Shown here one piece after another: positions 1-30,600 of a stretch of 32,125 bases of DNA. The first letter of the stretch is position 1, and each line of letters opens with the position of its first letter. The stretch comes from Nitrospirota bacterium. GTDB taxonomy: Bacteria; Nitrospirota; UBA9217. Below the pieces are notes generated by a model. The model worked only from the letters and a program-made list of their open reading frames with translations. It searched no databases and was not told the origin of the DNA. Position numbers and translations under genes: made by a program. The stretch is taken from contig DASPSR010000027.1 of assembly GCA_035623825.1 (NCBI GenBank), positions 1-32,125 of the forward strand. The letters run 5' to 3'.

Positions 1-2545
1 TTCACCGCAACTGCTCCCGATGGGCTGATGCTACCGTTCGCTCCCGCACTAGCCGTGATGGTAAAGGTGTTGATCGCGAATGTCGCCGATATCGTGTGGG
101 CAGTCGTTACAAGTGTGAACGTATAAGAGGTCTGGGCGCCAATCGAAACCCCGTCTACCTGGACATCGGCAATGGAATAGCCGGTAGTCGGCGTGATCGT
201 GAACGTCTGGCTTGCATTGTAATTCACCGCAACTGCTCCCGACGGGCTGATGCCGCCTCCCGTTCCCGCACTCGCCGTGATGGTGGGGTTAAGTCCGAAT
301 GTCGCCGATATGGTGTGGGCAGCCGTTACACTGCTAAATGTATACGACGTTATCGCTCCTTGCGAAACCCCGTCCACCAGAACGCTGGCTATGGAGTAGC
401 CGGTATTCGGCGTGATCGTGAACGTCTGGTTTGCACCGTAATTCACTACCACTGCTCCCGATGGGCTGATACCGCCGTTCGCTCCCGCACTCGCCGTGAT
501 GGTGGGGTTAAGTCCGAATGTCGCCGATATGGTGTGGGCAGCCGTTACACTGCTAAATGTATACGACGATACCGCTCCTTGCGAAACCCCGTCAACGAGC
601 ACGCTGACAATGGAGTAGGCGGTATTCGGCGTGATCGTGAACGTCTGGCTTGCACCGTAATTCACCGCCACTGCTCCCGATGGGCTGATGCCGCCTCCCG
701 TTCCCGCACTCGCCGTGATGGTAAAGGTGTTGATCGCGAATGTCGCCGATATGGTGTGGGCAGCCGTCACACTGCTAAATGTATACGACGTTATCGCTCC
801 TTGCGAAACGCCGTCCACCAGGACGCTGGCAATGGAGTAGCCGGTATTCGGCGTGATCGTAAACGAAAGGCTCCCGCCATAACTCACCAGAAACTGCTGA
901 GATGTGCCCGAGGACACAATGGTGCCTCCTGATTGGAGCGTGCCTCCTGCGCCTGCCGTCGCCGTAATAATGTTTGTGCCTTGCAGGAAGGCTACTGATA
1001 TGCTATGACCGGCTGTTACATTATAGAAAGTATACGAGGTGGGAGCTCCTACATTAGCACCATCGACTATCACTGCCGAAACATAGTATCCGGTCACCGG
1101 CGTGAACGTGAACGTCTGGTTTGCACCATAAGCAACCGATACCGAACCCGACGGGGTGATGGTCCCGTTCGCGCCCGCGCTCGCCGTGATAGTATTGGTG
1201 CTGAGCGTGAATGTCGCGCTGATCGTATGGTTGGCGGTCACATTGGTGAACGTGTAGGAGGTCACCGCTCCCTGCGAAACTCCGTCCACCAGAACGCTGG
1301 TGATGGAATAGCCGGCATTTGGCGTGATCGTGAATGTCTGGCTTGCACCAGAAGTCACCGACACCGAACCCGAGGGGCTTATGCTGCCTCCCGCGCCTGC
1401 GCTCGCCGTGATGACTGGGTTGAGCGCAAATGTCGCCGATATTGTGTGGTTGGCTATGACGTTGGTGAACGTGTAGGAGGTAACCGCTCCCTGCGAAACG
1501 CCGTCAACAAGCACGCTGACAATGGCGTAGCCGGCATTCGGCGTGATCGTGAATGAGCGGCTTCCGCCATAGCTCACCAGAAATTGCTCAGATGAGCTGG
1601 AGGATACAATAGTTCCTCCTGATTGGAGTGTGCCTCCTGCGCCTGCCGTCGCCGTAATGGTGTAGCTCCCCTGTGCAAAGGCTACGGCTATGGTGTGGTT
1701 TGCCGTTACAGTATAAAATGTATACGAGTTAGGCAAGCCTACGTTAACACCATCGACCGTCACTGCCGAAACATAGTATCCGGTCGCCGGCGTGAACGTG
1801 AACGTCTGGTTCGCACCATAAGTAACCGATACTGAACCCGACGGGGTGATGGTCCCGTTCGCGCCCGCGCTTGCCGTGATGACGGGGTTGGCCGCAAATG
1901 TCGTCGATATCGTGTGGTTGGCTATGACGTTGGTGAACGTGTAGCCCGAAGTAGGCAGCGGCGTTACCGCGACACCGTCCACCGAAACGCCGGTAAGATA
2001 GTAGCCGGCATTCGGCGTGAACGTGAACGTCTGTGATCCTCCATAAGCTACAGTTACTGATCCGGAGGGGGTGATGGTGCCGTTCGTGGCCGGGTTTACC
2101 GTGATGACAGGGTTGGCTGAGAAGCTCGCTTGTACCGTGCAGTTCTGAGTTATCGCGTTCGTTGTATAGGTTGTCCCGACAAGGGTTCCGCCGCAGGTGC
2201 CGCCCACTGTGTTGATATGATAGTTGAGATTCGGGGTAATTGTGAAAACCTGCGTTGTGTTGTAGCTCACCAAAACCGTTCCGGAAGGGCTGATGCTCCC
2301 GTTCGTACCCGCGGTCGCCGTGATAGCCATGAGGAAACTTGCGCTGATCGTATGATCGGATGTCACCCCGCTGAACGTATAAGAAGTTATTGGACCCTGC
2401 GAAACACCATCCACCAGCACATCGTCGACGGAATAGCCGGCATTCGGGGTGATCGTGAAAGTTGGGCTTGAATTGAGGTTCTCATTCAGTGCTCCGGAGG
2501 GCGTGATGGTGCCTCCTGGGCCCGCGCTGGCTGTGATGGTGAAGC
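1..2545 (-). repeat. Intragenic tandem repeats encoding the B-repeat-like stalk (unit ~219-245 nt)
   Basis: Near-identical blocks start at 282 and 501 (219 nt apart), 61 and 721 (660 nt apart), 921 and 1611, and 1061 and 1751 (690 nt apart). Confidence 0.9.
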
Positions 2546-3983
2546 TCGCCGGCGCTTCGGTCGTAAAGTTCCAGGTACTGTTGTTGGGGAGCGCTTTTCC
2601 AGCGACATCAGTGGCCCCCAGAGTCGTCGTAGGAGTTGTCGTAGAAATTATCGTAGCAGTGTAGGGGGTGGCATATGACAAGTCCTGTGAGGGTATGAAG
2701 ATAACCGCGGCTCCATTGGTTTTAACTTCCCCGGGGAGCGGTACTTTATTTGGATCGTTCTGAGCTACAAGTACGAACGTGGTCGGGGTGATCGAGCTTG
2801 CGAGCATTGATTCACTGAAGAGGGCGACAACCTGTTTATAGACCGACACATTATTTTGATTCGAGGTGGGCCACATGGCCAGCACGGACAGCGGTACGAT
2901 ATCCGCGGATTGCGGCCCTGTCGTGAACTGCCAGGTGGAATCAATTGCCATGTAGTTGCCTGCCAGGTCCTGCACGCCGTAATCAGTAAGTGAATACCCT
3001 TTGATTGTTACAACGTAGGTAGTCGAATGCGCGAGAGGACTGGCCGGCGTAAAAACAACGGTGTTCCCGTAACTCTTGATATCGCCCGGGATCGTGGTTG
3101 TTCCTTGGCTCACGATAAAATGAGTAGGGGTTATGGTGACCAGGTCCATCGGTTCGCTGAATGTGGCACTGATTGGTGTATTAACCGATACATTTGTAGC
3201 GTTGTTATTTGGGACGAGCGGTGCGACAGTCGGCGCTGTGGTGTTATAAGACGCTCCAGTCTGGAAATTCGATACAAAGGGGCTCGCCATCGGGGCCCCG
3301 GTTGTATCGGTCACGCCTGTCGAGATTGTGAGGACATAATTAGTGTTGCTGGCAAAATCGTTATCAGGATAAAATGTGGCCGCGTTTAATGTCTGATTAT
3401 ACTCAACACTTCCATAGTAGCCTCCGGCAGCGTTACTGAGCGAAATATTACTCGTCCAGATCGTATCCGGGTCCATCGGTTTACTGAACAAGATGGAGAT
3501 CGCTGTCCTGAGGCTTGCATTTTTTGATCGGTCGGCAGGCTGGATATCTACTACTCGTGGCGGCGGAAATGATTGTGTCGTAAAATAGAAAATCTGGGCA
3601 GTGGCCATGGGGATGCCATATGAGTCCGTTACGTCGGTGCTGACCCCGATCTTATATCTTGTATGCGGGTTCAGATTTTGTGACGGCGTGAAAACGGTAA
3701 CAGCGCCTACGGTGCTATATGAGCCTGCAACGGTGTTGCTGTCGGTATCTGATATTATGGGCACCGAAGACTCGTTGATGGTAGAAGCGTCCATAACTTT
3801 GCTGAACGTTAACGTGATCGTACCCGTGATAGGAAAGTCTGCAGTCCCATCGGAGGGGCTGACCGTGGTCACGCTTGGCGGTGTCTTATCAGGAGGCGGA
3901 ACGGGACCCAGGCGGCCGCATGCGGTGAGCAACAATGCCCCTGTTTGAATTAATACGAGAGTGATAAAGGTCAGCTTTTTCAT
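1..3983 (-). CDS. Giant surface lipoprotein: 4 SbsA/Big_5-like Ig domains plus at least 11 divergent InlB B-repeat (Flg_new_2-like) units; 3' end outside the window
   Basis: Not in the ORF track. ATG at 3983 follows GGAG. Translated by hand: MKKLTFITLVLIQTGALLLTA-C (lipobox), four 'P.V....P......V.....I...FS..MD...FTP...L...T.Y' domains, then ~73-80 aa repeats TITASAG.NG.I.PSG...TFTITP..GY....V.VDG.......YTF..V...HTI.A.F. The frame at position 3 matches the start frame (>1327 codons). Confidence 0.9.
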   Translation of the reverse strand, partial: MKKLTFITLVLIQTGALLLTACGRLGPVPPPDKTPPSVTTVSPSDGTADFPITGTITLTFSKVMDASTINESSVPIISDTDSNTVAGSYSTVGAVTVFTPSQNLNPHTRYKIGVSTDVTDSYGIPMATAQIFYFTTQSFPPPRVVDIQPADRSKNASLRTAISILFSKPMDPDTIWTSNISLSNAAGGYYGSVEYNQTLNAATFYPDNDFASNTNYVLTISTGVTDTTGAPMASPFVSNFQTGASYNTTAPTVAPLVPNNNATNVSVNTPISATFSEPMDLVTITPTHFIVSQGTTTIPGDIKSYGNTVVFTPASPLAHSTTYVVTIKGYSLTDYGVQDLAGNYMAIDSTWQFTTGPQSADIVPLSVLAMWPTSNQNNVSVYKQVVALFSESMLASSITPTTFVLVAQNDPNKVPLPGEVKTNGAAVIFIPSQDLSYATPYTATIISTTTPTTTLGATDVAGKALPNNSTWNFTTEAPASFTITASAGPGGTITPSGALNENLNSSPTFTITPNAGYSVDDVLVDGVSQGPITSYTFSGVTSDHTISASFLMAITATAGTNGSISPSGTVLVSYNTTQVFTITPNLNYHINTVGGTCGGTLVGTTYTTNAITQNCTVQASFSANPVITVNPATNGTITPSGSVTVAYGGSQTFTFTPNAGYYLTGVSVDGVAVTPLPTSGYTFTNVIANHTISTTFAANPVITASAGANGTITPSGSVSVTYGANQTFTFTPATGYYVSAVTVDGVNVGLPNSYTFYTVTANHTIAVAFAQGSYTITATAGAGGTLQSGGTIVSSSSSEQFLVSYGGSRSFTITPNAGYAIVSVLVDGVSQGAVTSYTFTNVIANHTISATFALNPVITASAGAGGSISPSGSVSVTSGASQTFTITPNAGYSITSVLVDGVSQGAVTSYTFTNVTANHTISATFTLSTNTITASAGANGTITPSGSVSVAYGANQTFTFTPVTGYYVSAVIVDGANVGAPTSYTFYNVTAGHSISVAFLQGTNIITATAGAGGTLQSGGTIVSSGTSQQFLVSYGGSLSFTITPNTGYSIASVLVDGVSQGAITSYTFSSVTAAHTISATFAINTFTITASAGTGGGISPSGAVAVNYGASQTFTITPNTAYSIVSVLVDGVSQGAVSSYTFSSVTAAHTISATFGLNPTITASAGANGGISPSGAVVVNYGANQTFTITPNTGYSIASVLVDGVSQGAITSYTFSSVTAAHTISATFGLNPTITASAGTGGGISPSGAVAVNYNASQTFTITPTTGYSIADVQVDGVSIGAQTSYTFTLVTTAHTISATFAINTFTITASAGANGSISPSGAVAV

Positions 3984-12396: not shown

Positions 12397-12413
12397 AATA
12401 TCGCAATTAAATA

Positions 12414-12429
12414 AGCAAGTTTAATGCCT
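12414..12429 (-). promoter_or_regulatory. Sigma-54 promoter for the leftward EPS operon
   Basis: Minus strand AGGCAT-TAAAC-TTGCT matches the -24/-12 consensus TGGCAC-N5-TTGC with exact spacing. Confidence 0.7.
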
Positions 12430-12490
12430 GTTGCAAGGGTGCTTGTTTTCAAAGCAATTCATAAAAAATTAATCCATAGAATGCATAAGG

Positions 12491-12613
12491 TGTTTCTAGA
12501 GGAAACATATATGCAAGAATACCTAAGTTTTATCCTGTATCCATTAGAAACACAATCAGGATTGCTGATATTAATTAACCTGTTCTGAATTATGATTGTT
12601 TCCTTAAGAAACA
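12491..12613. promoter_or_regulatory. Three palindromic TGTWTC-N5-GAAACA boxes, candidate enhancer (bEBP) sites
   Basis: TGTTTCtagagGAAACA 12491-12507; TGTATCcattaGAAACA 12536-12552; TGTTTCcttaaGAAACA 12597-12613. Confidence 0.75.
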
Positions 12614-12824
12614 TATTTTCTTGCTTGTGAACTTCACAAATCGATGATTCTGACCAAGCAGAAGATCGATAATACTTTATTCCTTCATCGGTCATTCCCT
12701 TCACAAAGAATTTCACTGGCTATCTATTAGGGCAATAGTTTCAATAATTTCTCTCTCTTTTCGTCATCATCGCACATACATGTTGCTTCGTCCCTCAAAA
12801 AGTCCCGGTGACACTATTCCTCAA

Positions 12825-12840
12825 CGGCATGTTTTTTGCT
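12825..12840 (+). promoter_or_regulatory. Sigma-54 promoter for the rightward surface-protein operon
   Basis: CGGCAT-GTTTT-TTGCT with exact -24/-12 spacing. Confidence 0.7.
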
Positions 12841-13204
12841 TTTGAAATTTACGAACTGATTCCAGATCTGCAAGTTTATATTATTTCGGTTATCAGTGCC
12901 GTCGGAACAGACATGGTCTTGAGAATACCAAGAAGAAGATCTTTCTTTTTTGTAATTCTGATTTAAGGAGATGATGGTTCAATTTTCTTTCGATAAGCCG
13001 GCTTTTTGAACTGGATGCAGCTACTTATACCATCATCAGAATGACGTAATTGATAGTGCCGAAGCCCTTTGGCATATCCGATAGTTATATACGATGAAGG
13101 CATGGAACGAGCCGATGTTTGCACTCTTTTATTTATTCACATTTCTTGCCTCATATTATTTGACAAACAATTAATTAATTTAAGTAATTTACGGGGGGGA
13201 GCTT

Positions 13205-16200
13205 ATGAAATTAGATTTTATTAGAAGCTTCAGGTTGCGGGCATGTACTATCTCTAGCCTGATCAGCTATTTGCTGAGAATCCAGTCCTCATCGACGCTG
13301 TCTCGCATTTTTAAGGACCTCGGTATTGTCGGATTAATCTGTCTGATCACTTTCGCAGGTATGCGCTCAGCGGATGCAAACTTATCTGGTGTAACAGCTA
13401 TATCCGCAGGATACCATTATACATTAGCATTGAAGAGTGACGGAACGGTTGTTGGTTGGGGTGATAACTCTAGTGGTACGACGGATGTCTCGGGCTTATC
13501 CGGGGTGAAGGCCATAGCTGCCGGATATGAACATGCCCTCGCGCTGTTGAACGACGGATCTGTGGTGGCTTGGGGTTGGAATTCTTATGGCCAGACCAAT
13601 GTGCCAGACCTTACCAGTGTCATTGCCATAGGAGCAGGATATGGCCATAGTGTAGCCTTACAGAGTAACGGCACGGTGGTTGCCTGGGGATATAACGGCA
13701 ACGGCCAAACGAATGTGCCTACGGGTTTAACCGGGGTAACTGCCATATCCGTAGGATACAATCATACTTTAGCTCTCAAGAGTGACGGCACGGTGGTTGC
13801 CTGGGGCGCCGGACAAGCCGGAGGGACTGGCGCGGATGATATGGGACAATCGATCGTGCCTACGGGCTTATCCGGTGTGAAAGCCATAGCAGCGGGCTAC
13901 CGATTTTCGGCAGCTGTCAAAAGTGACGGAACGGTGGTGGTTTGGGGAGACGACACTGATGGCGAGATATCGAATATGCCTGACGGCTTATCCAGTGTGA
14001 ACGCCATAGCAGCGGGATATCATCATATAGTGGCGATCAAGACCGACAAGACCGTGGTGGCTTGGGGTGCCGGGGGCATCGGACAAACATCACGCCAGTT
14101 TGATTACGAGCAGTCGATGGTACCGGCACTAGATGCATCCGGAGTGACCGCTGTAACCGCAGGGCAGGTCAATACCGAAGTTCTTAAGAGCGATGGGACC
14201 GTGGTGGGTTTTGGTGGAAACTCGGATGGACAGGTATCGCCAGATCTGCCCGTTTTGACAAAGGACAGTATTGTCTCGAACAATACCAACACAACCATTG
14301 CGGTACCCGGTAATACGGTCACCTTGAACATCACTGCATCAGGTATTATCAGCGCTCCGACCGCAACTATAGGCGGGGATGGTTTTAATATCCCCGGAAA
14401 TGCGGCGACCGTAAGCGGCAGCGGCACAAGCTGGACGGCATCATATGTTATGACTCCCAGTGACATTCAAGGGACCGTATACTTCATTATCAGTTACAGT
14501 GATTCGTACGGCAATAAAGGGGTACTAGAAAATCCTACGTTGGATGGAAGCACCGTTACTTTTTCTCTGGCCTCGCCAACAACCACAACTTTATCATCAT
14601 CGTCACTTACCCCGATATTCGGCGCATCCGTGACCTTCACGGCCGTCGTCAGCGGTACGACCGGCACGCCGACCGGTTCAGTGACATTCATGGATGGTAT
14701 AACGACCCTTGGCTTGGGACCGCTTAACGGTAGCGGGACCGCCGCCTTTGCAACATCTTCCCTCGGTATAGGGTCGCACTCGATTACAGCTACCTACACC
14801 GGAGATGCGACCGATTCCGCATCGACATCGAATACAGTTTCTGTGACCGTAAACAAGGCTTCTACATCGACGGCTCTCACAGTCACTCCCAATCCGTCGG
14901 TTTACGGCGGTTCGGTCACCTTCACGGCCACTGTCACAAGCAGCACGGCCGGTACGCCGACCGGTTCAGTGACGTTCCTGGATGGATCAACAGTCCTTGG
15001 CACAGGCCCTGTGTCCGGCGGCATGGCCACATATGCCACGACCACACTTGGTTTGGGGTCGCACTCGATCACGGCGGTCTACGGTGGTGACACAAGCTTC
15101 TCAACGTCAACATCACCTGCCGTCACGCAGACCGTAAACCAGGCTTCTACATCGACGGCTCTCACAGTCACTCCCAATCCGTCGCTTTACGGCGGTTCGG
15201 TCACCTTCACGGCCACTGTCACAAGCAGCGGAGGCGCGCCGACCGGTTCGGTGACGTTCAAGGATGGATCAACAGTCCTTGGCACAGGCACTGTGTCCGG
15301 CGGCACGGCCACCTACGCCACGACCTCCCTTAATGCGGGAACACATTCGATCACGGCGGCCTACGGTGGTGACACAAACTTTGTAGCGTCAACGTCACCT
15401 GTTACAACTCAGACCGTGAACCAGGCTCCGACAACGATGTCAATCGGCGCTCCTGCGGTAACGTACAACGCAAACGGCGTCGTGACTGTTGCCGTGAGCT
15501 CCTCTGGTTCCCCCGCTGTTACGGGTAGTGTGTCCTTAATCGTGGACAGCGGAGCGGCAACGACGCTGACATTGAGCAACGGTTCCGCATCCTTCACGAT
15601 CACCAGCCCGGGTGTGAGCAGCCATTCCTTAAGCGCATCATATGCTGCGCAGGGCAATTTCGCGGCGAGTTCGATTACCGGCACATTGACAGTAAACCCG
15701 GCGCCGACAACTACGACGATCAGCGCGCCTACGATTGCATATGGCGCAAACGGTAGTGTGACCGTTAAGGTGAGTTCGGGGACTCTCAGCCCCACGGGCA
15801 ACGTCTACTTGTATGTGGACGGCGCAACAACACCGATGCCGGGATCAATAACGGGCACCGGACAATACACATTCACAATTACCAACCCGTCTCTTGGTAC
15901 CCATAGCTTATCTGCATCGTATTTGGCGGACGGCAACTTCGCGGCAAGCTCAGCAACCGGCCAGTTGACCGTCGGTGGGTCAGCGACCACAACGACGATC
16001 ACCCAGCCTGCTACAGCCACGTATGGCGCACAAGCCAGCGTGACAGTGACCGTAAGCTCAGGGTCAGGGACGCCGACAGGCAGCGTGTCACTGAGTCTCG
16101 ACGGCACGCCATTGACGGGGCCGGGACTTGTTAATGGATCTACAACCTTCACGTTCAACAGCCCGGGTGCTGGCAGTCACGTCCTAAGCGCATCATATTC

Positions 16201-17572
16201 CGCACAGGGCAACTTCGCGGCAAGTTCGGGTACCGGCAATTTGATCGTGAATCAGGCAGTACTCACGGTGACGGCGAACAACGCGAGCAAGACCTATAAC
16301 ACTGCTAACCCGGTGTTCACGGCAAGTTACACCGGGTTTGTGAATGGGGATCCGCAGACAGTGCTTACCGGCACCCCATCACTGTCCACCACGGCAACAA
16401 CGGCGAGTTCAGTGGGCACCTATCCCATAAATGCGGTTGTCGGCAGTCTTTCGTCAACCAACTACAGCTTTAAATTTGTGAATGGCACGCTGACGGTGAC
16501 GCCGGCGTCGACAACAACAAGCGTCATCTCGTCTGCAAATCCATCGATATTAGGCGCTTCCGTGACATTTACGGCCACTGTTGCAAGCGGGACATCCGGC
16601 ATTCCAACTGGTTCGGTGACGTTCAAGGAGGGAACAACGACCCTTGGCACGGGAACGCTTAACGGCAGCGGGATAGCCACCTATTCCACGTCCGCTCTTG
16701 GTTTAGGGTCACACTCGATCACGGCGGTTTACGGCGGTGATGCGAACTTCGCCTCATCGACAACGCTGTCTGGCGTCAATGAGGCCGTAAATCAGATACC
16801 GACGTCTGCGCTAGTGACCGCCAATTCTAACCCGTCGATATTCGGAGGATCGGTCACCTTCACGGCTACTGTCACAAGCAGCGGGGGTACGCCGACCGGT
16901 TCGGTGACGTTCAATGATGGCGCATCGGCCCTTGGCACTGTCACTTTGTCCGGCGGCAAGGCCGCTTACACCACGTCCGCCCTGGTCGGGGGCGCGCACT
17001 CGATCACGGTGGCCTACAGTGGTGACACAAACTTTGCGACGACAACGTCACCCGCCATCACCCAGACCGTGAACACTACATCATCGTCAACGACCATCGC
17101 GTCAACTTTCGACCCGCTGGCCTATGGAGAGTCGGTCACCTTCACGGCAACGGTGACCCCGTCCGCGTCAACAGGGACGGTGACGTTCATGGACGGTGCA
17201 ACGACCCTTGGCACGGGCACCTTGTCAAGCGGCACGGCAACGTACGGTACCTCGGCATTGTCAGTTGGACCTCATAACATAACTGCGCAATATGGTGGGA
17301 ACACGAACTTCGCACCATCGAGTTCAGCGGCTCTTCCAGTTACCGTACTGATAGCCGATGGTAAGCTCGATGGTTCGGGGACTCAAGTTGATGTAACCGA
17401 TGCCCTCATGGCTCTTCGGATCGCTGCCGGAATAGATACCCCTACGGCCTCCGATCTTGCCCATGGAGACGTGGCCCCTCTGATAGATGGCCAGCGTCAA
17501 CCGGATGGGAAGATCGATATAGATGATGTCGTGGCAATCCTGAGAAAGGCGGCAGGACTACCAAGCTGGTAA
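13205..17572 (+). CDS. Large secreted surface protein: 7-blade RCC1/BLIP-II-like propeller, Ig-like group 3 repeats, MBG domain, C-terminal dockerin-like domain
   Basis: Seven AI.AG..H..ALKSDGTVV.WG repeats. About nine 'GGSVTFTATV...PTGSVTF.DG...LG..HSITA.Y.GD' Ig units. MBG-like LTVTANNASKTY...FVNGD. C-terminal ...VDVTDALMALRIAAG...GDVAP...PDGKIDIDDVVAILRKAAGL. Confidence 0.9.
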   Translation: MKLDFIRSFRLRACTISSLISYLLRIQSSSTLSRIFKDLGIVGLICLITFAGMRSADANLSGVTAISAGYHYTLALKSDGTVVGWGDNSSGTTDVSGLSGVKAIAAGYEHALALLNDGSVVAWGWNSYGQTNVPDLTSVIAIGAGYGHSVALQSNGTVVAWGYNGNGQTNVPTGLTGVTAISVGYNHTLALKSDGTVVAWGAGQAGGTGADDMGQSIVPTGLSGVKAIAAGYRFSAAVKSDGTVVVWGDDTDGEISNMPDGLSSVNAIAAGYHHIVAIKTDKTVVAWGAGGIGQTSRQFDYEQSMVPALDASGVTAVTAGQVNTEVLKSDGTVVGFGGNSDGQVSPDLPVLTKDSIVSNNTNTTIAVPGNTVTLNITASGIISAPTATIGGDGFNIPGNAATVSGSGTSWTASYVMTPSDIQGTVYFIISYSDSYGNKGVLENPTLDGSTVTFSLASPTTTTLSSSSLTPIFGASVTFTAVVSGTTGTPTGSVTFMDGITTLGLGPLNGSGTAAFATSSLGIGSHSITATYTGDATDSASTSNTVSVTVNKASTSTALTVTPNPSVYGGSVTFTATVTSSTAGTPTGSVTFLDGSTVLGTGPVSGGMATYATTTLGLGSHSITAVYGGDTSFSTSTSPAVTQTVNQASTSTALTVTPNPSLYGGSVTFTATVTSSGGAPTGSVTFKDGSTVLGTGTVSGGTATYATTSLNAGTHSITAAYGGDTNFVASTSPVTTQTVNQAPTTMSIGAPAVTYNANGVVTVAVSSSGSPAVTGSVSLIVDSGAATTLTLSNGSASFTITSPGVSSHSLSASYAAQGNFAASSITGTLTVNPAPTTTTISAPTIAYGANGSVTVKVSSGTLSPTGNVYLYVDGATTPMPGSITGTGQYTFTITNPSLGTHSLSASYLADGNFAASSATGQLTVGGSATTTTITQPATATYGAQASVTVTVSSGSGTPTGSVSLSLDGTPLTGPGLVNGSTTFTFNSPGAGSHVLSASYSAQGNFAASSGTGNLIVNQAVLTVTANNASKTYNTANPVFTASYTGFVNGDPQTVLTGTPSLSTTATTASSVGTYPINAVVGSLSSTNYSFKFVNGTLTVTPASTTTSVISSANPSILGASVTFTATVASGTSGIPTGSVTFKEGTTTLGTGTLNGSGIATYSTSALGLGSHSITAVYGGDANFASSTTLSGVNEAVNQIPTSALVTANSNPSIFGGSVTFTATVTSSGGTPTGSVTFNDGASALGTVTLSGGKAAYTTSALVGGAHSITVAYSGDTNFATTTSPAITQTVNTTSSSTTIASTFDPLAYGESVTFTATVTPSASTGTVTFMDGATTLGTGTLSSGTATYGTSALSVGPHNITAQYGGNTNFAPSSSAALPVTVLIADGKLDGSGTQVDVTDALMALRIAAGIDTPTASDLAHGDVAPLIDGQRQPDGKIDIDDVVAILRKAAGLPSW
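14846..15415 (+). repeat. Tandem duplication of a 285-nt Ig-domain unit
   Basis: ACCGTAAAC(A/C)AGGCTTCTACATCGACGGCTCTCACAGTCACTCCCAATCCGTCG... starts at both 14846 and 15131. Confidence 0.9.
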
Positions 17573-17677
17573 AAAGTCGTTCATGATGGCAGGGTCTCAT
17601 GGTATGGTCAGGCTTATAACGCTTACATGCGTCAGTGGTTACACGGCACGTATAAATATTTCAGGAGGATTAAATAC

Positions 17678-18223
17678 ATGAAAAAGAAAGCCCTATCGAG
17701 CTTGCTGATATTCGCTCTTGCACTGACTACTCTTACAGCCTGTGGCGGAGGTGGCGGAGGTGGAAGCAGCAGCGCGCCGCCGGTACAGCCTACCACGGCG
17801 GTCCTCACACTTTCGACCGCGGTTACCGGCTCGATTCCCGCATCTACCGTCATCGCCGGATATGACGTGACGATTACCCTCCCCGCGGGAGTAACGGTCA
17901 AGAGCACAACACCGCCGCAGACAGATGCCAGCGTCGTGGTTGGAACGGCCAATGGTGCCGCACCCGGGACCTATAACACCGGCTCCTTTTCACCAGCCAC
18001 TGGCAAGGTGCACATAGTATTCGTGAGCCCGCAAGGAAATGGATTTAACGGTCCTGGAGAATTCTGCAAAGTGAACTGCAACATTGCTGCAGGCTATTAT
18101 CCAACTGCAGCCGATTTCCAGCAGCTTACTTTTAAAGCTAGCGGTCTCAACAAAAATCCACAGCCCACGACTGTAGATCTAACCGGTCAATTATCCATGA
18201 CGGTCACGGCGGCCATCAATTAA
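17678..18223 (+). CDS. Lipoprotein with all-beta, possibly cohesin-like domain
   Basis: SD AGGAGG before ATG 17678 (track start 17627 is unlikely). MKKK-hydrophobic-LTA-C lipobox, Gly/Ser tether, then IAGYDVTITLPAGVTV ... VHIVFVS ... GF..GEF..V. Confidence 0.75.
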   Translation: MKKKALSSLLIFALALTTLTACGGGGGGGSSSAPPVQPTTAVLTLSTAVTGSIPASTVIAGYDVTITLPAGVTVKSTTPPQTDASVVVGTANGAAPGTYNTGSFSPATGKVHIVFVSPQGNGFNGPGEFCKVNCNIAAGYYPTAADFQQLTFKASGLNKNPQPTTVDLTGQLSMTVTAAIN

Positions 18224-18235
18224 GAAGTCTTCACC

Positions 18236-18754
18236 ATGAGAATAAGGGCTATCACATCTATAAGTATCAGCGTTGCCGTTGTGCTGCTTCTGTCGCTGTA
18301 CCGGCCTTCGCCGGCCTTCGCAACGTCTATAGTGACGATAACCAAAGCCAGAGAAGGGGTCTTTCTCCTCCAAGGTATCGGGATCGAGGATGCAGCTGCA
18401 CTTGATATCATTGTAGTGTACGATACCGCCACGCTCGCCAATCCCCGCGTCACTGAGGGTCCGCTCATTGCGGGGGCCATGACGGCGATAAACCCAAAGG
18501 TGCCAGGCACGGTACGGATGGCTGTCGTACGCCTTACGCCGGTGAAAGGCAGTGGAGTAATTGCAACGCTTGCCTTTGACCGCACCGGATCCTCTCCCGG
18601 GAAAATCACGTCGCTCAGCGTCAGACTTGCGAACATCAGGGGATCTTCGCTCCCTGCTCTGGTCCGGATAGAAAATGCATCTGAGGCATTCGGGACGGCT
18701 TCGGATTTACCGAACGATCAGACAATGACTACAGGAACTGCCATTGCACGGTAA
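18236..18754 (+). CDS. Secreted cohesin-like domain protein, probably C-terminally truncated
   Basis: Signal peptide ending AFA. AALDIIVVYDTATL...V..G ... PGTVRMAVV...PVKGSGVIATLAF matches the cohesin beta-sandwich pattern. Confidence 0.7.
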   Translation: MRIRAITSISISVAVVLLLSLYRPSPAFATSIVTITKAREGVFLLQGIGIEDAAALDIIVVYDTATLANPRVTEGPLIAGAMTAINPKVPGTVRMAVVRLTPVKGSGVIATLAFDRTGSSPGKITSLSVRLANIRGSSLPALVRIENASEAFGTASDLPNDQTMTTGTAIAR

Positions 18755-19150
18755 AACGGGCTCCGGAGCAATGTTAACACCTTCAATGATTGTTACGCTG
18801 TCATAATGGCGTGGCTGTCGGCCAGGGCCGGTGAAATCAGTGGTTGGCGGGATCCTTACCGCACCGGGGAGTGAACGGTACATTAGATAATATGGGGAAA
18901 ATATTCGCGTAAAAAAGTTTCTTGTGCATTTCTAGGATTGCAAAGGAGAAAGGACAGCCAAGGTATTCGTTTCCCCCTGTGAGCAAGAAAGTTACATCTG
19001 GCATAGCCAGGATTAGCCTCTCGCGCTCTCCGGCGGCAAATCCTTGATGCCGGTGATCGCCAGATCAGTTCTGGACTATAAAACTTCATCTGCTGAGGCG
19101 GTCACGGGAATACATGCGGTCTTTATAAAGAAAGATCTGCACATTTTTTT
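18755..19150 (+). pseudogene. Probable decayed 3' half of the cohesin-like gene
   Basis: A shifted frame from 18903 reads KKFLVHF*DCKGERTAKVFVSPCEQE...SQD*PLALSGGKS. This resembles my recollection of the C-terminal part of longer homologs; not searched. Confidence 0.5.
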
Positions 19151-19358
19151 TAAAGTCCCTGAGTTTTAGATTCAATGTTTTCTTCACCATCCACTTCCTT
19201 GCTCTGATGCACAATAAGGGGATATGCTCTTTCATTTAACGTGAGTTTCATGGCGAAACAACCAGCGTAGCCCAAAGCATTTAAAAATAATCTTCAGAGA
19301 TTATCAGGATTACAATAATATTTTCAGCGTTTAAGTTAGACATTGGAGGCTGTGTCCT

Positions 19359-21188
19359 ATGTGCGGGATCGTTGGATATGTCGGTAAAAACGGTTCTCTT
19401 CAGATGCTTGTGGAAGGACTAAAGAGGCTTGAATACCGCGGATATGACTCGGCGGGGGTGGCGTTCCAGAACGGGAGAGGTTTAGAAGTATATAAAACAA
19501 AAGGCAAGCTCAGAGATCTTCAGAGCATCCTCCCTGACCCCGCACCGGCCATACAGGTCGGGCTTGGGCATACACGGTGGGCCACGCATGGTGCGCCGTC
19601 TTCCGTGAACGCTCATCCGCATCGGGTAGAAGGTATTGCTGTGGTTCACAACGGGATTATTGAGAATTATCGCGAGCTAAGATCGCATTTGGAAAACGAG
19701 GGCCACCGGTTTCACTCAGAGACCGATACCGAAGTCGTGCCGCAGCTGATATCAAAATATCTTCGTCAGGGTGTTGCCATCGGCGACGCGATCCGTGTGG
19801 CCGTCGCGCAGTTACGGGGGACCTATGCCCTCGGGATCATAAGCGATAGCTGCCCGAACACGCTCTTCGCCCTAAGGAAAGGGAGCCCGCTTGTTCTCGG
19901 AATTGGCAGCGAGGCATTTTACTTCGCCTCGGATATCCCCGCGATCCTTCCCTACACACGGAAGTTCATATTCATGGAAGACGGTCATATGTGTACTCTC
20001 ACGCGCGACAACATTGACCTTCGTCATCTTGAATCAAACGCGGTCATATCATGCAAGGACAAGACGGTAGAGATCGGCTGGACGCCTGCCATGGCTGAAA
20101 AGTGCGGTCATGAGCACTTCATGCATAAGGAGATCTACGAACAGCCAGAGGCTATAAGAAATACCATCGGCGAGAGGATCAATGATCCGCTGCATTTCAT
20201 CATGGACCTTGGCGTTTATACTCAGAGGAGAGCAGACATACGGAAGCTGCACATCGTGTCTTGCGGCACATCTTACCATGCAGCGCTGATAGGCAAGTAC
20301 GTCATCGAGAGCATTGCTCGGATCCCGGTAAACGTCGAGATCGCTTCGGAATTCCGGTACCGGAACCCGATTGTTGAGCACGGCACGCTCTTTGTCGCCA
20401 TCACGCAATCAGGTGAAACCGCAGATACCCTTGCGGCTCAGCGCGAAGCAAAACGCATGGGTGCGCGGACCCTCACCATCTGCAATGTTGTGGGAAGCAC
20501 TTCCACGAGAGAGGCTGATTCTGTCCTTTACACTCGCTCCGGTCCGGAGATCGGCGTAGCCTCCACGAAGACGTTTACATCCCAACTGGCCGCTCTCTTC
20601 CTTCTTGCCTTCGGAGTGGCGATCGGACGGCGCTGTCTGACCGAGAAAGAAGCCGATGCAGTAAAGTCACAGCTCAGCGGGATTCCCTGCTTGATAGAAA
20701 AGATATTGAATAAAGACGCCGAGATCAAAGCACTTGCCAGAACCCTTATTCAGGCGAAGGATTTTCTCTATCTCGCACGGGGGATCAACTATCCCATCGC
20801 CCTCGAAGGGGCCTTGAAATTGAAGGAAATATCATATATCCATGCCGAGGGTTACCCGGCTGGAGAGATGAAACACGGGCCGATCGCGCTAATCGACAAG
20901 GATTTGCCAGTCGTTGTTCTGGCCCCCTCCAACGATCTCTTTGAAAAAGTCTTTTCCAATATCGAAGAAGTAAAGGCCCGGGGGGGTCGGGTAATTGCGG
21001 TAAGTGATTCTCCCGAAGCGCTGAAAGGCAAGGCTGATGACATTATCGAGGTCCCATCAACGCATCCGCTGTTCACGCCCTTCGTCAACGTCATTCCGCT
21101 CCAACTGCTCGCGTACCATGCCGGCGTCCAGAGGGGCTGCGATGTTGATCAGCCGCGTAATCTTGCGAAAAGCGTGACTGTTGAATGA
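19359..21188 (+). CDS. glmS: Glutamine--fructose-6-phosphate aminotransferase (isomerizing)
   Basis: MCGIVG, LEYRGYDSAG, GHTRWATHG, SQ/TQSGETADT, EMKHGPIAL, C-terminal DQPRNLAKSVTVE; 609 aa. Confidence 0.98.
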   Translation: MCGIVGYVGKNGSLQMLVEGLKRLEYRGYDSAGVAFQNGRGLEVYKTKGKLRDLQSILPDPAPAIQVGLGHTRWATHGAPSSVNAHPHRVEGIAVVHNGIIENYRELRSHLENEGHRFHSETDTEVVPQLISKYLRQGVAIGDAIRVAVAQLRGTYALGIISDSCPNTLFALRKGSPLVLGIGSEAFYFASDIPAILPYTRKFIFMEDGHMCTLTRDNIDLRHLESNAVISCKDKTVEIGWTPAMAEKCGHEHFMHKEIYEQPEAIRNTIGERINDPLHFIMDLGVYTQRRADIRKLHIVSCGTSYHAALIGKYVIESIARIPVNVEIASEFRYRNPIVEHGTLFVAITQSGETADTLAAQREAKRMGARTLTICNVVGSTSTREADSVLYTRSGPEIGVASTKTFTSQLAALFLLAFGVAIGRRCLTEKEADAVKSQLSGIPCLIEKILNKDAEIKALARTLIQAKDFLYLARGINYPIALEGALKLKEISYIHAEGYPAGEMKHGPIALIDKDLPVVVLAPSNDLFEKVFSNIEEVKARGGRVIAVSDSPEALKGKADDIIEVPSTHPLFTPFVNVIPLQLLAYHAGVQRGCDVDQPRNLAKSVTVE

Positions 21189-21498: not shown

Positions 21499-22977
21499 TC
21501 ACTCCGTCCGTAACAGCTCGGGATTGGTGTGCGGTATGAATACGGCACCAAGGTACTCCTTCATGAACTCGGGATCGTCGTTCATGTGCTTATAGGTAAT
21601 CCTGGCAACGATCTCGCTCGCCGCGCTCGCGAGGTCGCCATTGGCAAGCAGCATTCGTGCACCCGTGAGCGATGAGTTTCCAAGGGGCCTTACGATTTCC
21701 GGGGGCCACGCGGGAAGCATGCCGATGCCGACCGCCTTCTCGGCATTGATGCCCGTGCCGAGCGCGCCCGAAACATAGACGCTCGCGATGTCCCTGAACG
21801 CTATGCCGACGGACCGGGTCAGCACGAGGAGCAGGGTGAACATGGCGGCCTTGGATTTCATGAAATTCTGGATCTCGCTCTGCTTGATATACAGAAAGTC
21901 TTCACATGTGCAGGCAATGGCGAAAGCTTTCTCCCCGTCTAAGTCAATCACCTGTTTTCCCGCAGGTTTTAACGCCCCACTCTTGTCGATAATCCCCGCC
22001 TTGTAGAGCTCATACAGCAGGCTAACCATGCCGGAACCGCAGATTCCCTCAGGCGTAGCATCATCAAAGGTCTTGCATAGAATGTCGCTCCCTCGGATCT
22101 CGACCTCGTAGATGATCCCCTTCTGCGCCCGTTTCCCGATCCTCGATATGCCCTCCTCGAGCGCCGGGCCTGCTGCTCCAGCGCCCACGATCATCCATTC
22201 CCTGTTTCCGATCACGATTTCGGCATTGGTGCCGACATCGATCAGGATGGAAATTTTTTCGGATTGAAACATGCCCGAGGCGATGATGCCGGCCGTGATG
22301 TCGCCGCCCACATAGCTGCCCGCGTTCGGGAATACATATACGATCGCTTCTGGGTTCATGGCGAGGGACAGTTCGGATGCGCGCAGGAATCCCGGCGTCC
22401 TCACCACAGGGACAAAGGGGTTTACAGGAATCGTGCTGATATCGAGGCCGAGAAAATAGTGGCTCATGACGGTGTTTCCCGCCACGGTCATGGCATGAAT
22501 GTCACGGGCATCTATCCCGGCCTCCCGGCAGAGCGCTTCAATGAGACCGTTTATCCCGTCCTTGAGCACTCGAGCAACGTCATCATCCGCATGATCTGTC
22601 ATTGAATATTGCATGCGGGTAATGATATCGCTCCCGTAAGCAACCTGGGGGTTCCCGATGCTTTTCACGAGAACGTCCCTCTGCGAGATATTATCGTAGA
22701 GCTGCCCGACAAGGTTCGTCGTTCCAAGGTCAAGGGCGATGGAATAAGATCGCTCTTTGCCTACATCGATCAGCCTGTATGCGTTCTCGATCCGTCCTAC
22801 AATACACGTTAGGGTCCTGCCCTCGAAGAGGAGAGAAGACGTCTTTCGCAAGACACCGAGAGGAATGTCCAATTGGGCAAGCCCCAGGGCATCTCTTATG
22901 CGCTGGTCATGGGCGCGCCGATCAACGTCAGACGGAAGTGGCAGAGTGATATTCCTCTGAAAAATCAATGAGATCAT
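21499..22977 (-). CDS. ASKHA-domain ATPase, RACo/DUF4445 family (reductive activator of corrinoid proteins-like), no Fe-S domain
   Basis: IALDLGTT, NPQ..YGSDIITR, AGNTVM, YVGGDI, IDVGTNAEIV, AAGPALE, GICGSG, LGNSSL.GA. Confidence 0.88.
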   Translation of the reverse strand: MISLIFQRNITLPLPSDVDRRAHDQRIRDALGLAQLDIPLGVLRKTSSLLFEGRTLTCIVGRIENAYRLIDVGKERSYSIALDLGTTNLVGQLYDNISQRDVLVKSIGNPQVAYGSDIITRMQYSMTDHADDDVARVLKDGINGLIEALCREAGIDARDIHAMTVAGNTVMSHYFLGLDISTIPVNPFVPVVRTPGFLRASELSLAMNPEAIVYVFPNAGSYVGGDITAGIIASGMFQSEKISILIDVGTNAEIVIGNREWMIVGAGAAGPALEEGISRIGKRAQKGIIYEVEIRGSDILCKTFDDATPEGICGSGMVSLLYELYKAGIIDKSGALKPAGKQVIDLDGEKAFAIACTCEDFLYIKQSEIQNFMKSKAAMFTLLLVLTRSVGIAFRDIASVYVSGALGTGINAEKAVGIGMLPAWPPEIVRPLGNSSLTGARMLLANGDLASAASEIVARITYKHMNDDPEFMKEYLGAVFIPHTNPELLRTE

Positions 22978-27664: not shown

Positions 27665-30600
27665 ATGAACTACACCAAGATTACAAGTCTTTTTAGGCCT
27701 TTCAGGCTTCTCTTCGGCTCCTCCGACCCTGACAAAACCCGTAAGGTCCGGACAATCATTATTGTGGCATTCGCGCTTTTTTTCCTGTATTCAATTACTG
27801 GATTTTTTATCCTGCCGCCATACATAAAACGGATGGCAGTGTCAACGCTCAGCGACCAGCTCGGCCGCCGTGTAAGCATCGAATCGGTCAGCCTGAACCC
27901 CTATGTTCTCGTAGCCAGGGTCAGGGGATTCGAAATTAAGGAAGGTGACGGCAAGACGACCTTCCTGTCCTTTACCGGTCTGTTTATCGACCTGAAGATC
28001 GCATCCATCTACAAGAAAGGGCCTGTTATCCGCGAGATCAAGCTCGAAAAGCCATATGTCAATCTGGTCCGGGTGGATGCTAATACGTACAATTTTTCGG
28101 ATATCCTTGACAGGTTCTCCAAGAAACCCGAACAACCCGAGAAACCCGGTAAACCTCTTCTCTTTTCCGTGAGCAACATCCAGATCATCGATGGAAGCAT
28201 CGAATTCGATGACCGACCAGTGGGAACTAAACATGCTATTGCAAAAATAAATCTCACCATACCCTTCATCTCTGACCGTCCCTCCTATATCGAATCCTTT
28301 GTGGAGCCTTCATTCAGCGCTTTGGTCAATGGCACACCGCTGAATATACATGGAGATACCAAGGTCTTCGCTGACTCCCACGAGACCTCCTTGGACATCA
28401 GGCTCACGGATATCAATATCCCTTACTATCTGGCTTATGCACCGGCGCGGCTCAAGGTCAAGGTGCGGTCCGGACAATTGGATATCAACATAAAAGTCAT
28501 CTATCGCCAATATGCGGACCGGGCGCCGATGCTTTCAATGGCGGGCGAATCCAGGGTTCGGGACTTGAGGGTCGCCACACAGGACGGTAAGGACGAGTTC
28601 CTGCGCATCCCGCTTCTAAGCGTAAAGGACGTAATGTTCGATTTTGAGAAACAAAAGATCGAGATCAGCGCTATCGCGACCGAGAGGGGATTGGTGATGG
28701 TCTCACGTTCCGCAGATGGCCGCATAAACCTTTTGTCACTCATGGCCGCTCCGCCGCCGGCATCTCCACCGGGCAGGACAACGAAGACATCACCGCCCGA
28801 GACGACCCCTTGGACCATACAGCTCAATTCCTTCCTCGTGGATGGTTACACGGTCAGTGCATCGGATAGAAGCTTAACTGAGCCCTTTGGGATGACCGTC
28901 GACGAGATCAACTTCAAAGCACACAACATCTCGACCGAAGAGAAAGCACAGGGCACCTTCGCGTTGTCCATGCGTTTCGAGCGGAGGGGAAAAGCATCGT
29001 CCGATGGTGCGTTCACCGTGAACCCTCCGTCCGCCAGCATCAAGGTAAATGTCAAGGAGTTCCCGCTCAAGCCGTTCCAGCCGTTCCTGGCGGAACGGGC
29101 GCAGGTCATTCTTTCCGCGGGAATGCTGAATGTGACCGGCAATCTGAAGGCCCTCGAGACAAGTTCAGGTGGAATGAACGCTTCATTCAAGGGGAAGCTT
29201 TGGGTCAACAAACTTTCGCTGCTCGACAAGAGGAACGCTGAGGACCTGCTCAAATGGGATTCGCTGTATCTGGGCAAGATGGATATCAAAAACGAACCGC
29301 TCTTCGCTCACATCCGGGAGATCTCGCTTTCAAACTTCTATTCGCGCATCATCATCAACGCGGACAGGACCATCAATCTTCAGGAGGTATTTGCCGCATC
29401 AGTGCCAAAAGCGGCCAGTTCCCCGCTGCCGCAGACAACGGAAGCAGCTGCAGAGCAGAAACCGATACAGCCGCCCACGATCAGAATCGATAAGATCACG
29501 CTTCAGGGCGGGACGGTCAACTTCACTGACAACAGCATCACTCCTAGATTCAGCTCGAACCTGCTAGAGATAGGCGGACGTATCTCCGGCCTCTCGTCGG
29601 ATGTGAATTCGATGGGCGAGATCGAGCTAAGGGGAATGTATGACCGTTATGCGCCGCTCGAGATCACAGGCAAGGTCAATCCGCTCCGAAATGATCTGTA
29701 TGTGGAGCTCCGCATCGACTTCAAGGACATGGACTTGACGTCAATCAGTCCTTATTCGGGACGGTACGCCGGCTACACGGTCCAAAAGGGGCAGCTCTCC
29801 TTCCATCTTGATTACCTGGTCATCAAAAACAAGCTTGACGCAAAGAACAAGATCCTTCTCGACCAGTTCACCTTCGGCGACCGAGTGGACAGCCCTGACG
29901 CGACAAAGCTGCCAGTGAGGTTGGCCGTGGCCCTCCTCAAGGACCGGAACGGACAGATCGACCTTGATATCCCTGTCTCCGGAGATTTGAATGACCCGAA
30001 GTTCAGCGTGGGCCACGTGGTGCTCAAGATCATTGGGAACCTTCTCACGAAGGCCGCCACAGCCCCCTTCGCCTTGTTGGGCTCCATCTTTGGTAGTAGT
30101 GAACAGCTCGATCATGTTGAATTCGATTATGGCTCCGCCCTCTTGAATGACGGGATGAAAAAGAAGCTTGACACCCTCGTGAAGGCTCTGCACGAACGTC
30201 CCGCACTCGAAATGGACATCGTGGGCCACGTGGACTTCGATAAGGACCGTGAGGGGCTGAAACAATCCCTGATGCTTCGCAAAGTGAAATCCCAGAAGAT
30301 CAAGGAGATGGCCAGAAAAGGCGGCGAAGCGCCGGACTTTGAATCAGCAGTCGTGACGCCCGAGGAATATCCCAAGTACCTGAAGCTGGCCTATAAAGCG
30401 GAGAAATTTCCCAAGCCCAGAAACATCATAGGCATGGCCAAAGACCTTCCTGTGCCTGAAATGGAGAAGCTCATGCTTACCAATCAGAACGTGACAGAGG
30501 AAGAACTCAGGGCGCTTGCCGGGGATCGGGCTTTGGCGGCCAGAGATTATTTACTGCAATCTGGACAGGTTGAGCAGGGGCGTGTCTTCATTGTTGAGGC

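Follow-up and report, generated by a model that had tools for sequence, protein, structure and literature searches.

A candidate cohesin-dockerin-type cargo and anchor cassette in an uncultured Nitrospirota-like diderm

Can a diderm bacterium hold large secreted proteins at its surface with a cohesin-dockerin-type pair outside of a cellulosome? In Gram-positive cellulosomes, cohesin-dockerin pairs are the textbook device for high-affinity assembly. The question is raised by three neighboring genes at positions 13205-19150 of a 32-kb stretch of DNA from a Nitrospirota bacterium (32,125 nucleotides, called the window here). An earlier note, made from the sequence alone, had proposed that a lipoprotein encoded at this locus captures a secreted adhesin through a dockerin-like tail. 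Our analysis leans modestly towards reading the locus as a minimal non-cellulosomal cohesin-dockerin-type cassette of cargo and anchor belonging to an uncultured Nitrospirota-like diderm. Three open reading frames (ORFs) were called on the plus strand at 13205-17572 (1455 aa), 17627-18223 and 18236-18754 (172 aa). The true start of the second was placed at the ATG at 17678, 8 nt after AGGAGG, in agreement with a 181-aa database form (P0015). The gap between gene 1 and gene 2 was 105 nt and that between gene 2 and gene 3 was 12 nt, and the noted arrangement of three co-oriented genes with short gaps was therefore confirmed. A promoter and terminator scan, whose yield was at or below shuffle expectation, found no terminator-like site on the plus strand between the three genes. 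Scans with Pfam and NCBIfam found no carbohydrate-active enzyme (CAZyme) domain in any of the three genes, as had been noted by eye. The features of the region are:

13205..17572, plus strand, cargo gene (gene 1) for a 1455-aa RCC1-propeller/immunoglobulin (Ig)-stalk protein with a dockerin-like tail (ORF, Pfam, ribosome-binding site)
13382..14194, plus strand, RCC1-like beta-propeller, about residues 60-330 (Pfam; boundaries approximate)
14612..17338, plus strand, Ig-like stalk of Big_3_5 repeats and one MBG_2 (Pfam; outer boundaries approximate)
17339..17569, plus strand, dockerin-like C-terminal tail, about residues 1379-1455 (family profile match, E 1e-35)
17678..18223, plus strand, lipoprotein (gene 2) with a Gly7 tether and one predicted cohesin-like beta-sandwich, 181 aa (lipobox, AlphaFold2, Foldseek, synteny)
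18236..18754, plus strand, predicted secreted cohesin-domain protein (gene 3), short and apparently truncated form, 172 aa (Pfam Cohesin, Atlas neighbors)
18906..19136, plus strand, decayed remains of a long-form gene 3, C-terminal half (tblastn; out of frame, internal stops)

Genome contigs were scanned with a profile of the lipoprotein. This gave 14 loci (~240 kb), 13 from Nitrospirota/Nitrospirae metagenome-assembled genomes (MAGs) and one from a Geobacteraceae MAG, and all stop-to-stop ORFs of these loci and of the window were then searched with hidden Markov models (HMMs). In 14/14 loci the lipoprotein gene was immediately preceded, on its own strand, by a tail-bearing ORF. The loci and the window together held 16 tail-bearing ORFs, 15 directly upstream of a lipoprotein gene and one directly downstream (L003), and none was found elsewhere in the ~240 kb of the 14 loci or in the 32-kb window. 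The cargo domains were unrelated between loci and included RCC1, NHL, Big_12, Big_3_5, DUF2341/GH43-like, Peptidase_M6/BACON, PIG-L/DUF7402, Cu-oxidase-like and CHB_HEX_C; the tail and the lipoprotein were the only constant parts. Conservation of the neighborhood, which had been named as a check on the proposal, was thus observed despite unrelated cargo. Variants of the arrangement were also seen. In L003 (6202-14151) two tail-bearing genes, with tails 93% identical, flank a single lipoprotein gene, and in L012 (9782-10759) the lipoprotein is a mini-scaffoldin with two cohesin-like domains in tandem. One MAG contributed both L008 and L009, and therefore one genome can hold two cassettes. Recurrence of the gene pair suggests plug-in attachment of proteins to the cell surface and, because a constant tail and a cohesin-fold lipoprotein are kept across unrelated cargos, a physical interaction between the two would be the best explanation.

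The tail was used for an exhaustive phmmer search over 1.84 billion cluster representatives (50% identity clusters), which returned 1442 representatives at E<=1e-3, of which 331 reached E<=1e-10. The 150 best hits (P0126-P0275) were proteins of 41 to 5987 aa. Rescoring with the family HMM placed the domain no more than 5 residues from the C-terminus in 147 of these 150, the three exceptions being P0128, with two internal copies, P0142 and P0254. The last residue was Trp in 125/150 and Phe in 14/150, and the corresponding Trp codon of the window is at 17567-17569. This conserved aromatic C-terminus could belong to a binding or a sorting determinant. Alignment of the window tail with 25 short members (26 sequences) gave the consensus GDLxGxGxVDxxDALxALRIAAGLxxPTAxDLxHGDVAPLVNGxPQPDGKIDIGDVVVILRKAVGLxxW, which consists of two tandem loop/helix repeats, the second with an expanded GDVAP...PDGKID loop. 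When its first and second halves were compared by hhalign, they aligned with a probability of 92.4% (E 5.2e-7, 30 columns), and therefore the duplicated loop/helix is real. Pfam Dockerin_1 was matched at E<=1 by 14/26 aligned members (best 1.2e-5) and EF-hand_1 by 6/26, while one relative, P0180, scored above the gathering score of Dockerin_1 (PF00404; 39.5 bits against a cut-off of 22.9). When the family profile was compared with the PDB it matched 12 chains, 9 of them named dockerin or cellulosomal (best E 0.0057). The canonical dockerin loop is an EF-hand-like loop of 12 residues with the pattern D-x-[DN]-x-[DN]-G...D, and acidic ligand positions in the loops of the window tail are plausible. 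From the Dockerin_1 matches, the PDB profile hits, the half-to-half alignment and the score of P0180, we read the tail as a divergent dockerin-type module with an expanded second loop, its first loop also appearing atypical in the sub-lineage of the window. The duplicated calcium-loop/helix, dockerin-like C-terminal domain that had been seen by eye was in this way recovered by comparison. Cargo domains of the wider family were assessed by scanning 53 of the 150 best proteins (at least 300 aa and within the size limit) with Pfam. This added GH5, GDSL lipase, M23, Metallophos, FG-GAP, fn3, Laminin_G_3 and cytochrome c7-like domains, and for 12 of the 53 there was no Pfam family at E<=1e-6.

The product of gene 2 begins with MKKKALSSLLIFALALTTLTAC-GGGGGGG, in which the lipobox LTAC occupies residues 19-22 and is followed by a tether of seven Gly. 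Bacterial lipoboxes follow the pattern [LVI][ASTG][GA]C at the end of the signal peptide. Across 40 aligned homologues Cys22 was invariant and the GGG/Gly run nearly so, and a lipobox-like regular expression relaxed for Pro/His variants (e.g. LPHC) fitted 13/14 loci. Relatives at E<=1e-3 numbered 111 (90% identity clusters) among 987 candidates in the length window, nearly all of 165-220 aa, and a search for longer or fused forms gave one weak hit (E 7e-4), which is weak evidence for the absence of fusions. The ratio of nonsynonymous to synonymous substitution (dN/dS) against L001 was 0.215. AlphaFold2 (AF2) modeled one beta-sandwich with a predicted local distance difference test score (pLDDT) of 84.9 and a predicted template modeling score (pTM) of 0.74. 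A Foldseek search of this model against the PDB returned cohesins for all of the top 10 matches (~30 of 41 rows listed). The best was 1tyj (E 3.4e-4, probability 1.00, template modeling (TM) score 0.46/0.49), and 2xdh gave a TMt of 0.53. In an Atlas feature search 13/30 hits fell in the Cohesin set (score 0.92), and the nearest unnamed Atlas clusters were mostly from Thermodesulfobacteriota (0.95-0.96). The lipoprotein profile gave no cohesin hit in the PDB. The lipoprotein fold is predicted, from the model, to be a cohesin-like beta-sandwich. A lipoprotein with a Gly tether and one beta-sandwich had been described correctly, and the structural comparison that had been suggested pointed to cohesins. 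The cohesin call for this protein had also been considered the weakest link of the proposal; this order was reversed, as the lipoprotein has the strongest comparative support, being paired with the tail in 14/14 loci. As a side observation, the lipobox and Gly/Ser-Pro tether (17678-17800) resemble the N-terminus of the Escherichia coli lipoprotein SslE/AcfD (PDB 23px_A, E 0.034 with the single sequence; NCBIfam SslE, E 0.0032), a similarity at the level of the linker only.

Gene 3 encodes a protein with a signal peptide that by reading ends ...PAFA/TS. Its match to Pfam Cohesin was sub-threshold (E 0.012), scoring 16.2 bits where the cut-off is 24.1. Fourteen close relatives were found within a length window of 94-301 aa, and the gene-3 family, with five N-terminal domains from related loci included, matched Pfam Cohesin at E<=1 in 18/18 cases (best 7.5e-6). 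Against the PDB the single sequence found nothing, and the family profile matched best to 5nrm_A and 5nrk_A (ScaB cohesin, E 0.05). The neighbors of an Atlas model of gene 3 (pTM 0.68) were Cohesin-bearing clusters in 9/10 rows, with TM scores of 0.61-0.70, one of these rows carrying Cohesin on only 14% of its members. Comparison of folds thus placed gene 3 with the cohesins, as had been anticipated, and its fold is predicted to be a cohesin beta-sandwich. Our own AF2 model of gene 3 (pLDDT 52.2) was discarded, as its Foldseek search was uninformative, with Ig V domains and cohesins both among the matches at E>=0.014. Several of the Atlas neighbors of gene 3 (18236-18751) were GspD-family secretins fused to Cohesin, mostly from Acidobacteriota, which hints that cohesin modules may sit on diderm secretion machinery.

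A homologue of gene 3 followed the lipoprotein gene in 6/14 loci. Five of these were stop-to-stop ORFs of 450-469 aa and that of L001 was short. The long forms matched Cohesin in 4/4 scanned (E 1.3e-4 to 7.6e-3) and continued after the cohesin with a Pro/Ser/Ala-rich linker, a conserved Ig-like domain (Big_12 at E 0.024 in one) and a C-terminus with a single DLNKDGKLD..DDFIFTANYL-type loop/helix, matched by Dockerin_1 at E 0.001 in L006. When the five ~450-469-aa homologues were compared with 18200-19400 of the window using tblastn, they matched 18906-19136 (E 1.2e-10 to 5.9e-4) in a frame that differs from the coding sequence, and stop-to-stop ORFs in this interval were broken at ~18933 and ~19014. 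Gene 3 of the window thus appears to have arisen by truncation from a ~450-aa cohesin/linker/Ig-like/half-dockerin protein of which the N-terminal cohesin module survives. The dN/dS of gene 3 against L001 was 0.32 over 149 codons, suggesting that the cohesin-only form is maintained. A secreted cohesin-like protein had been proposed here. A signal peptide can be read and the predicted fold is cohesin-like; the protein is a truncated form and not an intact family member.

Gene 1 begins with an ATG preceded by a strong ribosome-binding site, GGGGGGGAG. By eye its putative signal peptide has a hydrophobic core and a cleavage-like site after ..MRSADA, at about residue 57. The region before the hydrophobic core is unusually long (~40 aa; 13205-13375), and the signal peptides of other tail-bearing cargos were ordinary, short and Sec-type. 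Pfam recognized the propeller as WD40_RLD (E 7.4e-67, residues 60-257), RCC1_2 in 7 stretches and Beta-prop_TEP1 at 239-303, and the stalk as Big_3_5 in 9 stretches (E 2.5e-150) and MBG_2 at residues 1020-1097 (E 4.2e-21). NCBIfam gave 0 families for the protein and thus no PEP-CTERM model was matched. The C-terminus reads ...ILRKAAGLPSW with no hydrophobic or basic stretch, and lacks the PEP motif, transmembrane helix and Arg-rich end of an exosortase substrate. Together these results agree with the suggestion of a secreted, propeller-tipped Ig stalk without a PEP-CTERM tail.

From these observations we infer a simple division of labor among the three proteins. The gene 1 protein would be exported by Sec and would present its RCC1 propeller on the long Ig-like stalk, ending in the family-specific dockerin-like tail. 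The gene 2 protein would be lipid-anchored, with a flexible Gly tether, and its single cohesin-fold sandwich would bind the tail, probably in a calcium-dependent manner, so that the cargo is held at the outer membrane, presumably at the cell surface. Gene 3 would supply a second, secreted cohesin module acting as an adaptor or an extension, and only the cohesin part survives in the window. The cassette might also have a role in a matrix of extracellular polysaccharide (EPS).

Several results weigh against this interpretation. The window tail alone (the last ~77-80 aa) matched no Pfam family even at E<=10, the whole gene 1 protein gave no Dockerin_1 hit in Pfam, and as a single sequence against the PDB the tail gave weak EF-hand and AlgK hits only. 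By reading, its first loop, DGKLDGSGTQVDVTD, has one residue more than that of its relatives (GDLNGDGxVDxxD) and its second has an insertion of ~8 residues (GDVAP-LIDGQRQ-PDGKIDIDD). A strictly terminal position and a conserved aromatic last residue are, to our knowledge, atypical of cellulosomal dockerins, and would be expected of a sorting signal no less than of a binding module. For the lipoprotein, the Foldseek TM scores were moderate (0.33-0.53, with a query that includes ~38 disordered residues) and pilins, alpha-haemolysin and other beta-sandwiches appeared in the list from rank 11. Pfam Cohesin (PF00963) matched 0/40 members of the lipoprotein family at E<=1, and no profile-profile homology was found between this family and the gene-3 cohesins (23.5% with signal peptides and 8.4% for the mature domains). 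The identities of tails and lipoproteins were correlated (Mantel r 0.68, 0/5000 permutations), and this was rejected as evidence of co-evolution because it is confounded by shared phylogeny. Finally, there are far more tail clusters (1442, at 50% identity) than relatives of the lipoprotein (111, at 90% identity and within a length window), numbers that come from different clustering and search methods and are not strictly comparable, which suggests that most tail proteins do not have an adjacent lipoprotein of their own.

The terminal position of the tail is central to a different account, in which the tail is mainly a C-terminal sorting or secretion tag, following the logic of type IX secretion system (T9SS) C-terminal domains or PEP-CTERM, and the lipoprotein is an export or retention accessory, for example pilotin-like or a receptor, and not a stable anchor. 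Such a role would suit a domain found no more than 5 residues from the C-terminus in 147/150 proteins, with Trp or Phe last in 139/150, carried by very diverse cargos that include enzymes and cytochrome-like proteins, and the GspD-family secretin-Cohesin fusions among the gene-3 Atlas neighbors (rows 3, 4 and 6) would suit it too. We consider it unlikely, as no secretin, type II secretion system, T9SS or exosortase gene was detected beside the window cassette or as a conserved neighbor of the loci, and the sequence signature of the tail is that of a folded two-repeat calcium-loop/helix domain and not of a cleavable peptide. A tag and receptor model would moreover still imply binding between tail and lipoprotein. 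It is also possible to keep the binding and move the partner: the tail could pair with the cohesin of gene 3, or with cohesins elsewhere, leaving the lipoprotein a beta-sandwich with another role such as EPS, peptidoglycan or substrate binding. The gene-3 family is the only one recognized by Pfam Cohesin (18/18 against 0/40 for the lipoprotein), and its long forms carry a dockerin-like half repeat (that of L006) as adaptor scaffoldins do. However, gene-3 homologues were present in 6/14 loci against 14/14 for the lipoprotein, gene 3 is truncated in the window and the best structural matches of the lipoprotein were cohesins, and we regard this reassignment as improbable.

The genomic surroundings bear on two further explanations. 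The cassette of the window lies between an XrtA-type EPS locus and glmS; in L001, L005, L009 and L010 the cassette adjoins EPS genes or glmS, in L002 and L008 it adjoins glmS, and the PDB hits of the tail as a single sequence were generic EF-hands. This would be consistent with a tail that has no protein partner and serves as a calcium-dependent stabilizing or polysaccharide/matrix-binding module, with its neighbors kept together through co-regulation with the EPS locus. The pair was nevertheless kept in quite different surroundings and in the Geobacteraceae MAG, so EPS co-regulation cannot explain adjacency in 14/14 loci, making this explanation decidedly improbable. It would be more extreme to suppose that there is no functional link and that adjacency reflects the shared ancestry of a few related genomes. 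The sample is small and 13/14 loci are from one phylum, but the cargo genes are not orthologous, having unrelated domains, and yet the tail and the downstream lipoprotein are retained with every one of them; in addition one MAG has two separate cassettes (L008, L009) and one locus comes from another phylum. We give shared ancestry alone very little credence.

The cargo and anchor reading, if correct, can be extended, although the extension is tentative and we hold it to be somewhat doubtful. The Pfam-invisible lipoprotein cohesins and the loop-expanded, Trp-terminated dockerin may form a general outer-membrane plug-in retention system of anaerobic diderms, namely Nitrospirota, Geobacteraceae and, to judge from the Atlas neighbors, probably Thermodesulfobacteriota. 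Its clients would number more than 1,400 protein clusters, among them adhesins, hydrolases and cytochrome-like proteins, with each cassette a cognate pair and the third protein (cohesin plus half-dockerin) an adaptor into an XrtA-type EPS matrix. Such a system would parallel cellulosome anchoring in diderms, without any connection to cellulose. The conserved two-gene cassette names a specific candidate for a cognate pair in diderms and points to a putative lipid-anchored receptor missed by domain databases. If the binding is true, it would explain how the tail-bearing proteins secreted by uncultured anaerobes, a very large class, are retained at the surface, would add a mode of anchoring beside exosortase sorting, T9SS and lipoprotein display, and would offer new orthogonal binding pairs for protein engineering.

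Comparison with known systems shows both shared and distinct features. As in cellulosomal anchoring in Clostridium thermocellum and Acetivibrio cellulolyticus (type I/II; 1tyj, 5k39 and 5nrm are among the matches), a duplicated calcium-loop/helix module stands at the C-terminus of a secreted cargo, the lipoprotein is a ~140-aa beta-sandwich whose predicted fold is best matched by solved cohesins, and many cargos share few receptor modules, with a tandem-cohesin form in L012. Here, however, the system belongs to a diderm and would be anchored by a lipobox and Gly tether, not by surface-layer homology domains or sortase, and the window locus has a single cohesin and no glycoside hydrolase. Unlike cellulosomal cohesins and dockerins, the lipoprotein is invisible to Pfam, and the tail has an expanded second loop and a conserved last Trp. 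The C-terminal tag on many diverse secreted proteins and the genomic association with an EPS locus are also reminiscent of the PEP-CTERM/exosortase (XrtA) system, but the tail is a folded domain of ~70 aa without PEP motif, transmembrane helix or basic tail. Non-cellulosomal cohesin- and dockerin-like modules were reportedly described by Peer et al. in 2009.

A cellulosome has been defined by a scaffoldin with at least two cohesins together with dockerin-borne glycoside hydrolases (PMC13487519). In the window each cohesin protein carries a single cohesin, and Pfam gave no CAZyme domain; elsewhere in the tail family some cargos have GH5 or GH43-like domains. The same source describes in Cellulosilyticum lentocellum, a Gram-positive, a minimal system of one cohesin and one dockerin that lies below the scaffoldin definition of a cellulosome (PMC13487519). 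The two systems are alike in being reduced to one cohesin-bearing protein and a dockerin-bearing partner. In C. lentocellum a GH5 cellulase bears the dockerin and the cohesin protein has a carbohydrate-binding module, whereas here the cargo is an RCC1/Ig protein and the cohesin fold is on a lipoprotein. Cohesin and dockerin domains have been listed as putative adhesins of anaerobic methanotrophic (ANME) archaea and syntrophic sulfate reducers (PMC10553843, PMC5244752), and in one of these papers the function of cohesin-dockerin outside cellulosomes is described as unknown (PMC5244752). Those proteins resemble ours in that the domains are on non-catalytic, adhesin-like proteins of anaerobes, diderm Desulfobacterota included, with a proposed role in adhesion or aggregation. 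In the parts available the reports are lists of domain hits and describe no conserved gene pair of cargo and lipoprotein, and because the lipoprotein is Pfam-invisible such lists cannot include its family by construction. Further papers report a giant Omnitrophota ORF with nine dockerins (PMC10066038) and putative dockerin-like and cohesin-like ORFs in Saccharophagus degradans (PMC2386152). Full-text searches of the literature found no natural pairing of a cohesin-fold lipoprotein with a dockerin-tailed partner in a diderm, although supplementary tables (e.g. S10 Table, PMC10553843) might list such pairs, and they returned no paper that joins dockerin with PEP-CTERM.

Upstream of the cassette and divergent from it lies an XrtA/PEP-CTERM-type EPS locus identified with NCBIfam. 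It encodes a TIGR03015 ATPase, an UpxY-family antiterminator, a TIGR03013 transferase, a TIGR03027 export protein, a TIGR03007 chain-length determinant, a TIGR03018 kinase and a TIGR03016 outer-membrane protein. The upstream block also has a small response-regulator-like gene (Pfam), and glmS lies downstream of the cassette. Homologues of EPS genes or of the regulator were found upstream of the cassette in L001, L005, L009 and L010 (the window plus 4/14 loci) and glmS was adjacent in L001, L002, L005, L008, L009 and L010, counts that are lower bounds because several flanks are short or filled by the cargo gene. Other loci had different neighbors (AMP-binding enzymes, an FAD oxidoreductase, other Ig proteins). 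The two-gene pair is universal among the examined loci and the EPS context belongs to one sub-lineage. Of the proposed coupling to EPS, the analysis shows conserved adjacency to the XrtA-type locus only.

The cassette had also been thought to share an enhancer with the EPS locus. A palindrome, TGTTTC-N5-GAAACA, was found at 12491-12507, 12536-12552, 12597-12613 and 19244-19260 with a fifth match at 22255-22271. Allowing up to 1 mismatch, 0.06 matches would be expected and 5 were found. The array at 12491-12613 is 600-700 bp upstream of gene 1, beside the divergent response-regulator gene, and the copy at 19244-19260 is ~100 bp before glmS. L001 has one exact copy (3009-3025) between the regulator gene and glmS, and the palindrome probably serves as an operator that links the EPS locus with glmS. 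No match to the sigma-54 -24/-12 pattern was found in 12397-13204. A shared enhancer for gene 1 was therefore not supported, as there was no sigma-54 match and the array is distant, lies beside the response-regulator gene and recurs before glmS. Rfam gave 0 matches in the window.

Two further genes of the window were noted. On the minus strand at 3-3983 a protein of more than 1327 aa has Big_5 and Flg_new_2 (InlB B-repeat) domains; its gene adjoins that of the TIGR03016 PEP-CTERM-associated outer-membrane protein and its 3' end lies outside the window. At 27665-30667, unrelated to the cassette, a 1000-aa DUF748 protein (Pfam, 1013 bits) has a weak OmpA-like C-terminus.

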